Positions 24,001-27,000 of a DNA stretch of 64,000 nucleotides are shown here, piece after piece; the first letter of the stretch is position 1, and the number at the start of each line of letters is the position of its first letter. Source of the DNA: Escherichia coli (lineage in GTDB: Bacteria; Pseudomonadota; Gammaproteobacteria; Enterobacterales; Enterobacteriaceae); the NCBI RefSeq assembly GCF_048403405.1, contig NZ_CP183135.1. One strand, 5' to 3'. Made by a program: the position numbers.

Positions 24001-27000
24001 ATCGCGGCGGGTGTCTGAGCCTTTCTGGTTCAGGCAAGACGCAGGTACCAGAAATGCGAAGACCCCACTCGTTAATCCATTAACTCGTGAGGTCTGCATG
24101 AAGTACCTTAACACTACTGATTGTAGCCTCTTCCTTGCAGGGAGGTCAAAGTTTATGACGAAATATGCCCTTATCGGGTTGCTCGCCGTGTGCGCCACGG
24201 TGTTGTGTTTTTCACTGATATTCAGGGAACGGTTATGTGAACTGAATATTCACAGGGGAAATACAGTGGTGCAGGTAACTCTGGCCTACGAAGCACGGAA
24301 GTAAGCTGCCGGGCGGGGACGGAAGTCCCCGCTTTCCGGAAGTGTGAGGTATTTCAGGGGCAGACACCCGACATGCCAGAAACAGCCGGTCCCGCCCGGG
24401 GCCGGCATCCTGGTTAAGGCATTTCCTGCTTTTCAGTCATTTCATTATCAAAATCACATTAAACGGTTGTAATCAGACATGATTTGTGCGCCAACACCGA
24501 TCATCGTCACAACTTTCAAGTCGCTGATTTCAAAAAACTGTAGTATCCTCTGCGAAACGATCTCTGTTTGATTATTGAGGAGGCGAGATGTCGCAGACAG
24601 AAAATGCAGTGACTTCCTCATCGGGAAAAAAACGACCTTACAGAAGGGGTAATCCTGTTCCTGCGAGAGAACGACAAAAAGCGTCTCTTGCAAGAAGGAG
24701 TGCCACTCATAAAGCGTTTCATGCCGTCATTCAGCTTCGACTGAAAGAAAAGTTAAGTGAGCTTGCTGATGAAGACGGGATCACTCAGGCACAGATGCTT
24801 GAGTGGCTGATAGAGTCAGAGGTTAAGCGCAGAAAATCTTTGTGAGTATTTGCGTTTCTTGCTGTTTCAGTGATGAGATGTTAGATTGCTGATCGTTTTA
24901 AGGAATTTTGTGGCTGGCCACGCCGTAAGGTGGCAGGGAACTGGTTCTGATGTGGATTTACAGGAGCCAGAAAAGCAAAAACCCCGATAATCTTCACCAG
25001 GTTTGGCGACTAAGAGAAGATTACCGGGGCCCACTTAAACCGTATAGCCAACAATTCAGCTATGCGGGGAGTATAGTTATATGCCCGGAAAAGTTCAAGA
25101 CTTCTTTCTGTGCTCACTCCTTCTGCGCATTGTAAGCGTAGGATGGTGTGACTGATCTTCAACAAACGTATTACCGCCAGGTAAAGAACCCGAATCCGGT
25201 GTTTACACCCCGTGAAGGTGCAGGAACGCTGAAGTTCTGCGAAAAACTGATGGAAAAGGCGGTGGGCTTCACCTCCCGTTTTGATTGCGCTATTCATGTG
25301 GCGCATGCCCGTTCGAAGGGACTGCGTCGGCGCATGCCACCGGTGCTGCGTCGACGGGCTATTGATGCGCTGCTGCAGGGGCTGTGTTTCCACTATGACC
25401 CGCTGGCCAACCGTGTCCAGTGCTCCATCACCACGCTGGCCATTGAGTGCGGGCTGGCGACGGAGTCTGCTGCCGGAACACTCTCCATCACCCGTGCCAC
25501 CCGTGCCCTGACGTTCCTGTCAGAGCTGGGGCTGATTAGCTACCAGACGGAATATGACCCGCTTATTGGCTGCAACATTCCGACCGATATCTCGTTATAA
25601 GGGCCATCTTCGTACCCTTCTTTCGACGCAATAGCTTTCAGTCTTGCGCTGGCACACGCTGAACTACCCGCATTACCATTACTACAGGCAGCAATAACCT
25701 CCTTATCACTGAATATCTTTTTCAAGCAATGCATCATATTTCTGCTGTGCCTTTTCACGCTCTGCCGGATCTTTACTGTTTTTAATCGTCTGTTTTGCTA
25801 TCTCAAGTTCTGTCTTTTCAGACACGCTCAGGTAGTTATTCTCAACAGCATTCTTCCCGCTCTGTGTGCTCCCACTGCAGCTGATGCGGTGCTGTTTCCG
25901 GTTAGACCGCCGGTCAGCCCTGCTGACACGGTTGCCAGCGTACTTATCGTCTGCTTCTGCTCTTCACTGAGGTCAGACAGCTTCACTCCCGGATACAGCA
26001 TTCCGATCGCTCTGGCTGCCAGCTCTCCTGTTGCTGCGCCTGCTGCACCAGCAGCAACATTATTACTCTGCATTGCTGCTACTGCACCGCCCAGAATGGC
26101 GTGAGCAATGGCCTTTACTGCCGGGTCTTTTTCTGTTGATTTCAGCAGGTATGCCAGTTCCGGAGCCGAAGCTCCCGCCAGTACTGCACCAACGTCACCA
26201 CCTGCCAGCTATGGCTGGAGATGGTGGATGTTACCGATAATCAAGAAGCCTTAGATATAAGGCAATGTTTTATCTTTCTTTCATACGAAAACCAGTGCTG
26301 CCATACTAGCCCTTTTCCTGTGACATCTAAGCGAGCTCATGTTTATCGGGAAGGGTGTTAAATCATTGTTAATCATACACAGGTAATTATGCAGCGGTTA
26401 TGCATAACTTCATTTCGAGCGTGTGATAACGCCAACACAACCACCAGAATTATAAAATAAAATCACAAAACCTGAGAACATATCACATTTTATCACATTA
26501 ATAATTTTTCTTTATGATTTCATAACTATTTACAGCCTTTTATTAAGCCAAAAAAAGTTAAATTGCAATTATTTCATAATTATTCACGCTACAGTTTTTT
26601 TACTTTTAAAATCATATAAATATATAATCACCTTAAAACAGCAAACTCCACAAAATAATAACAAATAGAGATATTTCCACCCAAATAATGACTATCTATT
26701 CATGAGCTGACATTATGAAATTAATCATTATTTAATGCAAGTAACACAAATTAAAACAAATACCTTAATATCCATTATTGTGTGAATCTCATCACAATAA
26801 TGTTTATTTTACCGCCTAGTATGAACCACGAAATCAATTGAAGTTAGCCGCCATGAAATTAAATACACAACATGGCGCATACCTTTTTATTCTAAAAAAA
26901 TTAAAGGAATAATTATGGAAAAACATTACGTCGGTTCTGAAATTGGTCAATTGCGTAGTGTTATGCTGCACCGCCCAAATTTAAGTCTGAAACGTTTGAC

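Follow-up and report, generated by a model that had tools for sequence, protein, structure and literature searches.

A truncated F36-type IncFII replicon keeps an intact copA control cassette beside a complete FII replicon in an Escherichia coli plasmid

In plasmids R1 and R100 (NR1), copA is expressed constitutively and acts in trans, and in R1 recognition and inhibition rest on loop II and the upper stem of the CopA RNA, with the lower stem remaining intramolecular in the inhibitory complex. RepFIC of plasmid F, reportedly treated by Saadi et al. in 1987, is said to be the classical case of an FII-type replicon that is defective yet retains its inc determinant. Here we describe a similar locus in a window of 64,000 nucleotides (the whole stretch of DNA that was analysed) from the Escherichia coli contig NZ_CP183135.1, where a truncated replicon of incompatibility group FII (IncFII), hereafter the relic or left copy (24459-25596), shares the plasmid with a complete FII replicon, hereafter the right or working copy (37428-38564 onward). 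We think it rather probable that the relic is a dead, resident F36-type FII replicon which keeps its full control cassette and whose CopA would restrain the working copy, a reasonable reading that is built on sequence comparison and follows from textbook IncFII control.

The nearest precedent for the relic is found in plasmid F (NC_002483), whose RepFIC remnant likewise has hok/srnB, repA2, copA, tap and a broken repA1, with the hok locus in the same position, and F, like the window plasmid, replicates by other replicons. The relic thus falls among the defective FII/RepFIC-type remnants, with repA2-copA-tap kept, repA1 disrupted and other replicons present. However, the repA1 of F is broken only a few bases into the gene, where a Tn3-family transposon follows that we take to be Tn1000, whereas the break in the relic lies at codon 150, at a cdiA fragment. 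Plasmid F also has no second FII copy of matching CopA and its CopA differs in the upper stem, so the CopA of the F remnant has no resident target, while the window has a matching working copy 13 kb from the relic. All of the elements known from R1 and R100, namely a two-stem-loop CopA, the CGCCAA loop core, a tap overlapping the repA1 start and repA2/copB, are found in both copies of the window, though the relic, unlike R1 and R100, is without the C-terminal half of RepA and without an origin. The CopA of the R100 type differs from that of the window at 7 positions in the upper stem flanking the loop, which may confer a different incompatibility specificity. The features of the relic are listed below (aa, amino acids; ORF, open reading frame).

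24459-25596, plus strand: truncated F36-type IncFII relic with repA2, PrepA, copA, tap and the 5' half of repA1, no origin (alignment with 37428-38564; 98.6% to the FII replicon of pSJ_94)
24588-24845, plus strand: repA2/copB of the relic, 85 aa (NCBIfam NF010256, 127 bits; accession as in pSJ_94)
24859-24887, plus strand: putative PrepA, TTGCTG-17-TAGATT (found by eye from the sequence; the consensus promoter scan did not flag it)
24973-25063, minus strand: copA of the relic, full-length antisense RNA gene (Rfam RF00042, 102.8 bits, model positions 1-92 of 92)
25098-25070, minus strand: copA promoter of the relic, sigma-70-like TTGAAC-17-TATACT (promoter scan, consensus match)
25081-25155, plus strand: tap leader peptide, 24 aa, with V20 (A20 in the working copy) (TIGR03475, 54.6 bits; translation)
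25148-25600, plus strand: repA1 remnant of 149 RepA codons, one foreign codon and a stop (ORF, alignment, TIGR03474)

Local alignment paired this IncFII-type module with the complete module at 37428-38564 in three parts, i.e. a diverged repA2/copB, a near-identical tract (24897-25460) and a moderately differing end (25461-25597). The repA2 genes (24588-24845 and 37557-37814) are strongly divergent, with indels in the DNA alignment and 41 of 85 residues identical between the proteins (48%), in agreement with the divergence that a first-pass annotation of this DNA had noted for the product. An indel of 1 base at 24896 marks the start of the near-identical tract, where only 3 of 564 positions differ (24991 T/C, 25139 T/C and 25287 G/T, left/right), and the interval 24950-25147, which had been called near-identical to 37918-38115, holds two mismatches in 198 bases. 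The rest of the alignment carries 14 mismatches in 137 bases, and the homology stops between 25596 and 25597, so that the cut in repA1 formerly given as ~25597 could be placed to the base. The 61-aa frames at 24950-25135 and 37918-38103 do translate identically, as had been reported, since the base change at 24991 leaves the encoded residue unaltered there; the frame was nevertheless rejected as a real gene, being the legacy 'CopA/IncA protein' ORF that overlaps the RNA gene, and the real small ORF is tap, in which V20A separates the left and right copies.

In the left copy repA1 is reduced to 150 codons and stops at the junction; over residues 1-150 its product is 95% identical to the RepA (285 aa) encoded by the right copy. 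It is not a full-length initiator, as it matches TIGR03474 over positions 1-141 of 275 only, with 302.8 bits against a cutoff of 446.9, and in the RefSeq (PGAP) annotation the left repA is a C-terminally incomplete pseudogene that abuts a VENN pre-toxin pseudogene. Directly downstream of repA1, where the origin is expected, the cdiA fragment stands after 25596 instead, and no second copy of the origin region (38566-39900) was found elsewhere in the window. Since this region occurs only once, beside the right copy, the left copy cannot replicate. The right copy retains repA2, copA, tap, a full-length repA1 and the origin region, the last holding at about 39150 a TTATCCACA motif that is presumably a DnaA box; its features are as follows.

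37428-39300, plus strand: complete FII replicon, allele F31 by inference (alignment, Rfam, TIGR03474; right end approximate)
37557-37814, plus strand: right repA2 (aligned to the left repA2)
37941-38031, minus strand: right copA (Rfam RF00042, 99.2 bits)
38038-38066, minus strand: right PcopA (coordinates carried over from the left copy by the alignment offset)
38049-38123, plus strand: right tap, part of the complete FII module
38116-38973, plus strand: right repA1, 285 aa (TIGR03474, 581.5 bits, above cutoff)

The evidence that carries our reading lies in the copA gene of the relic, which is unannotated in the RefSeq record of p675SK2_B, a plasmid identical to this part of the window (see below). 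Both copies give a full-length covariance-model match above the RF00042 gathering score of 60 bits, and the relic gene runs antisense to the leader, on the minus strand between repA2 (end 24845) and tap (start 25081). Promoter mutations that would inactivate the truncated copy were looked for and none was found, as the promoter-bearing stretch 25064-25110 has 0 mismatches in 47 bases to the working copy and is unchanged across the aligned F, F36 and F31 sequences. The predicted intrinsic terminator (stem-loop II plus a U-run, 25001-24983; consensus match) is, like the promoter, identical to that of the working copy. The relic RNA is predicted to fold into two stem-loops (-35.0 kcal/mol, z = -3.97), a shape also taken by the working-copy RNA, and it is identical to the CopA of pSJ_94.

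Between the two CopA RNAs a single base differs, at position 73 in lower stem II (window 24991 and 37959), where the relic has A and the working copy G; loop II and the upper stem are alike. In the working CopA, G73 turns a lower-stem U-A pair into U.G, and in the working-copy target (CopT) the same change makes an A.C mismatch at a predicted cost of 4.7 kcal/mol (-23.0 vs -18.3 kcal/mol). The control cassette is therefore kept at the level of the sequence, with repA2/copB, the expected PrepA region, tap and a copA that has its promoter, both stem-loops and its terminator, though at the putative PrepA the bases upstream of the -10 hexamer differ between the copies, as does repA2.

The relic CopA is expected to cross-react with the working copy because loop II and the upper stem are identical and only the lower stem differs. 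In the mechanism we propose, it would be made and would pair with the working-copy repA leader no less well than the cognate CopA does, each plasmid would have two copA genes per working origin, the raised inhibitor per plasmid would lead to fewer FII initiations, and incoming plasmids of the same CopA type would meet FII incompatibility. The relic CopB, with its 48% identity and the diverged promoter-proximal sequence, probably does not act on the PrepA of the working copy. Published work shows that copAB segments in trans displace F plasmids, an effect abolished by three loop mismatches (PMC6961859), that mutations in the loop II head raise the copy number of R1 (bioRxiv 10.1101/2020.08.12.248336), that CopA blocks Tap and hence RepA synthesis (PMC5717011), and that in pEC958 replication initiates at the RepFII origin, with copA among the elements required for stable maintenance (PMC4398462). 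Extra CopA dosage from the relic, as the first-pass annotation had proposed, is plausible; the proposal is supported in part, in that all of its sequence prerequisites (full copA, promoter, terminator and loop II) are present.

The same annotation had taken the truncated copy for the 'second' replicon, and here the comparison with pSJ_94 points the other way. This plasmid, published as F36:A4:B- (PMC7193042), has one complete FII replicon with the RepA2 accession and the CopA of the left copy and is 98.6% identical to window 23684-25596, and the truncated copy is therefore the F36-type resident of the tra-finO-hok backbone. The allele names used here, F36 for the left and F31 for the right copy, come from pSJ_94 and not from the plasmid multilocus sequence typing (pMLST) database. 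Plasmid pARG01, on the other hand, can be followed without a break out of its DUF2726 gene into window 37428-41311 (97.9% identity), which places the right copy within part of a second F backbone. Compared with pARG01, the right copy shows 4 mismatches over 37428-37927 but 15 within 37928-38027, the 100 bases around CopA; compared with pSJ_94, the counts are 122 over 37428-37927 and 4 over 37928-38427, which makes the right copy a mosaic of a pARG01-like repA2 module and an F36-like copA/repA1-5' module.

25597-26190, minus strand: frameshifted VENN pre-toxin (cdiA-like) fragment (PGAP pseudogene; part 93% to cdiA; right end approximate)
26915-32157, plus strand: arginine deiminase cluster between the FII copies, with arcA, arcC, argF, a yfcC-family transporter gene and argR (annotation of identical records; ORFs)
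35008-37427, minus strand: IS110-family insertion of 2.4 kb, directly upstream of the complete FII module (pARG01 is contiguous from 35007 to 37428)

The VENN fragment is fused directly to the repA1 breakpoint and no insertion sequence (IS) end is found at this left junction, which points to illegitimate recombination. We propose that a resident F backbone with the order tra, finO, hok/sok, repA2, copA, tap and repA1 would have had its repA1 broken at codon 150 when a segment made of the cdiA fragment, the arginine deiminase cluster, IS66 and IS1 was joined to it together with part of a second backbone (DUF2726, a repA2 of the other type, copA, tap, repA1, origin and pemIK), and FII replication would now depend on the right-hand copy. 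Among the PLSDB matches sampled, every record matching the segment upstream of arcA also had the repA1/VENN junction. The IS110-family insertion contains a transposase gene (36130-37191, minus strand) and one small ORF for a hypothetical product, and it lies precisely where the complete module begins on its upstream side.

We compared sister plasmids, 8 sampled and 2 more out of the 253 with the junction. The left copy was unchanged save for one site in the 8 plasmids sampled, and the right copy occurred in three forms. The first, with the one-base stem variant, is found in the window, p234-NDM-5, pYJ3-a and KE40; the second, with a CopA identical to that of the relic, in pETN48 and pECwhn14; and the third, with an R100-type CopA having 7 changes in the upper stem/loop, in pMB2791_2 and CP137937, where an R100-type copA/repA1-5' tract (equivalent to 24936-25453) lies between flanks of the usual type. 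The right copy of pETN48 has a left-like tract from 24896 to 25287. In pECwhn14, V20 and A20 of Tap are swapped between the truncated and the complete copies relative to the window (positions 5082-5156 and 18050-18124), which indicates short-patch exchange between the repeats. Judged from these alleles, the two 0.7-kb direct repeats recombine and reshuffle copA/tap/repA1-5' alleles among the sisters.

It might then be argued that the main consequence of the relic is genetic, with the 0.7-kb repeat exchanging sequence by gene conversion with the working replicon and a crossover able to delete the 12-kb arginine deiminase segment and rebuild a hybrid replicon. The conversion-like tract of pETN48, the swapped tap polymorphism of pECwhn14 and the union of an F36-like copA module with a pARG01-like repA2 module in the working copy all fit such a substrate for recombination. 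However, FII replicons are generally mosaic and some of these patterns may predate the fusion, and no simple-crossover deletion product was identified; single replicons of the pSJ_94 type were considered as crossover products and rejected, as the single-nucleotide polymorphisms in pSJ_94 and p005784 form a patchwork with no single-crossover pattern. As an account of what the relic chiefly does we find this unlikely, and it is in any case compatible with a regulatory effect, since both can hold.

The C allele at 37959 was present in 209-212 PLSDB records, and all six of those sampled carry the arginine deiminase island, whereas the T allele at the equivalent site was present in about 1,000 records from many genera. 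That the right-copy CopA allele might be an independent, widespread one was considered and rejected, since C occurs in no more than about 210 records and all six sampled have the island. A stronger version of our reading would make the relic a built-in copy-number brake that shaped the working replicon, with the F31 'allele' a compensatory derivative of F36. The doubled copA dose would then select tuning or escape changes in the working copy, for which the lineage-restricted stem change at 37959 (seen only with the island) and the swap to R100-type CopA in the sisters would be candidates; we hold this to be quite improbable.

The arrangement, judged by identity to typed records, is that of the already known F31/F36:A4:B1 plasmid lineage, with two FII copies and the arginine deiminase cluster between them. 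Window 20000-44000 (24 kb) matches p675SK2_B at 100% identity; this IncF plasmid carries NDM-5 and has the MOB-suite type FIA/FIB/FIC. The same structure is found in F31/F36:A4:B1 plasmids (p675SK2_B, pETN48 and p51008369SK1_E) of sequence types ST167, ST131, ST69, ST405 and others. The exact repA1 junction was detected in 300 of 5,426 complete E. coli genomes in RefSeq (5.5%), once on a chromosome, and in 253 PLSDB plasmids, 250 of which retain the whole left region, while the whole 24-kb arrangement is present in at least 197 PLSDB records with 99.5-100% identity. CP029978, CP024856 and CP024860, which are 100% matches, were published as F36:F31:A4:B1, and plasmids of this type are described as having gained the arginine deiminase cluster and the additional FII31 replicon together (PMC7193042). 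F31/F36 on one plasmid is the most frequent double-FII call in pMLST (PMC12090814). These published accounts treat the two FII alleles as a typing matter or as an 'additional replicon' (PMC12090814, PMC7193042), and the F31/F36 literature covered, which did not include the pTN48/pETN48 paper (AAC 2011), makes no mention of a truncation, of which copy is affected or of copA retention. The chromosomal junction is that of NZ_CP031653.1 (E. coli UK_Dog_Liverpool, 183414-183534), which suggests integration of such a plasmid or segment.

Several observations weigh against a restraining role of the relic CopA. The heteroduplex of the relic CopA with the working-copy CopT has one A.C mismatch (-181.1 vs -187.8 kcal/mol), and the CopT-bearing leader transcript of the relic could itself absorb some CopA. 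FIA and FIB replicons are typed on the plasmid (MOB-suite) and could buffer any FII effect, or set the copy number instead. In pNDM-5-1001 (NZ_MH985167.1) an IS26 end abuts the equivalent of 25201, so that the relic repA2, copA and tap are lost, and yet this is a complete plasmid, which retains the junction (its 2212-2660 corresponds to window 25201-25597), the arginine deiminase cluster and the complete FII replicon. In pMB2791_2 and CP137937 the relic CopA is probably inactive on the working copy, because the working CopA there is of the R100 type with its 7 upper stem/loop changes, and these three plasmids together leave no obligate role for the relic copA. The high retention of the relic may reflect only recency and clonality, as the identities are at least 99.5%.

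The relic may also be nothing but an inert scar, a neutral leftover of the fusion that persists through the youth of the lineage and whose CopA is scarce or inconsequential owing to FIA/FIB buffering or compensating changes. The near-clonal 24 kb in at least 197 records, the typed FIA and FIB replicons and the variants without relic copA or with another CopA type in the working copy agree with this, but the promoter, RNA and terminator of the relic copA are undamaged and the same as in functional replicons, and silence would need a special explanation because copA, as known from R1 and R100, is constitutive and trans-acting. We regard an inert relic as possible, though on balance doubtful, and in that case it would merely be an annotated pseudogene in a known plasmid. 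If its CopA is active, the ratio of FII origin to inhibitor would be halved, and an altered FII copy number would therefore affect the dosage and transfer of resistance genes in plasmids of the F31/F36:A4:B1 type, vehicles of NDM-5, CTX-M and further resistance genes in a number of successful E. coli clones. An active relic would also set up incompatibility with F36-type plasmids by way of a replicon that has fallen out of use, and would explain why two FII alleles are typed for functionally one FII replicon, with relevance to copA-based plasmid-curing designs and to the reading of replicon typing.

The position of the arginine deiminase operon allows one further role, in which PcopB and PrepA of the relic would read through the repA1 stump into the operon 1.3 kb downstream and couple its expression to plasmid control. 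The relic promoters and the operon are on the same strand, and the stretch separating them (window 25600-26915) holds no more than two weak terminator-like sites (26110 and 26248), but arcA has its own long AT-rich upstream region with promoter-like sites and pNDM-5-1001 keeps the operon without the relic promoters, and we consider such promoter donation highly improbable.

24009-24303, plus strand: post-segregational killing locus of the hok/sok (srnB-like) type, a short way upstream of the relic (Hok/Gef ORF end at 24303; Rfam sok RF01794 match at 24009-24165, 93.3 bits)

The Hok accession, WP_001312851.1, is annotated in plasmid F and in pETN48. The Rfam 'sok' match at 24009-24165 lies on the plus strand, the same as the hok ORF, and the model appears to take in the leader of the hok mRNA and not the antisense RNA alone. 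At the other end of the window, 42700-64000 is a multiresistance region bounded by IS26, which by identity to p675SK2_B contains class 1 integrons (dfrA12-aadA2 and dfrA17-aadA5), ISCR1, blaNDM-5-ble, mph(A)-mrx-mphR and chrA.

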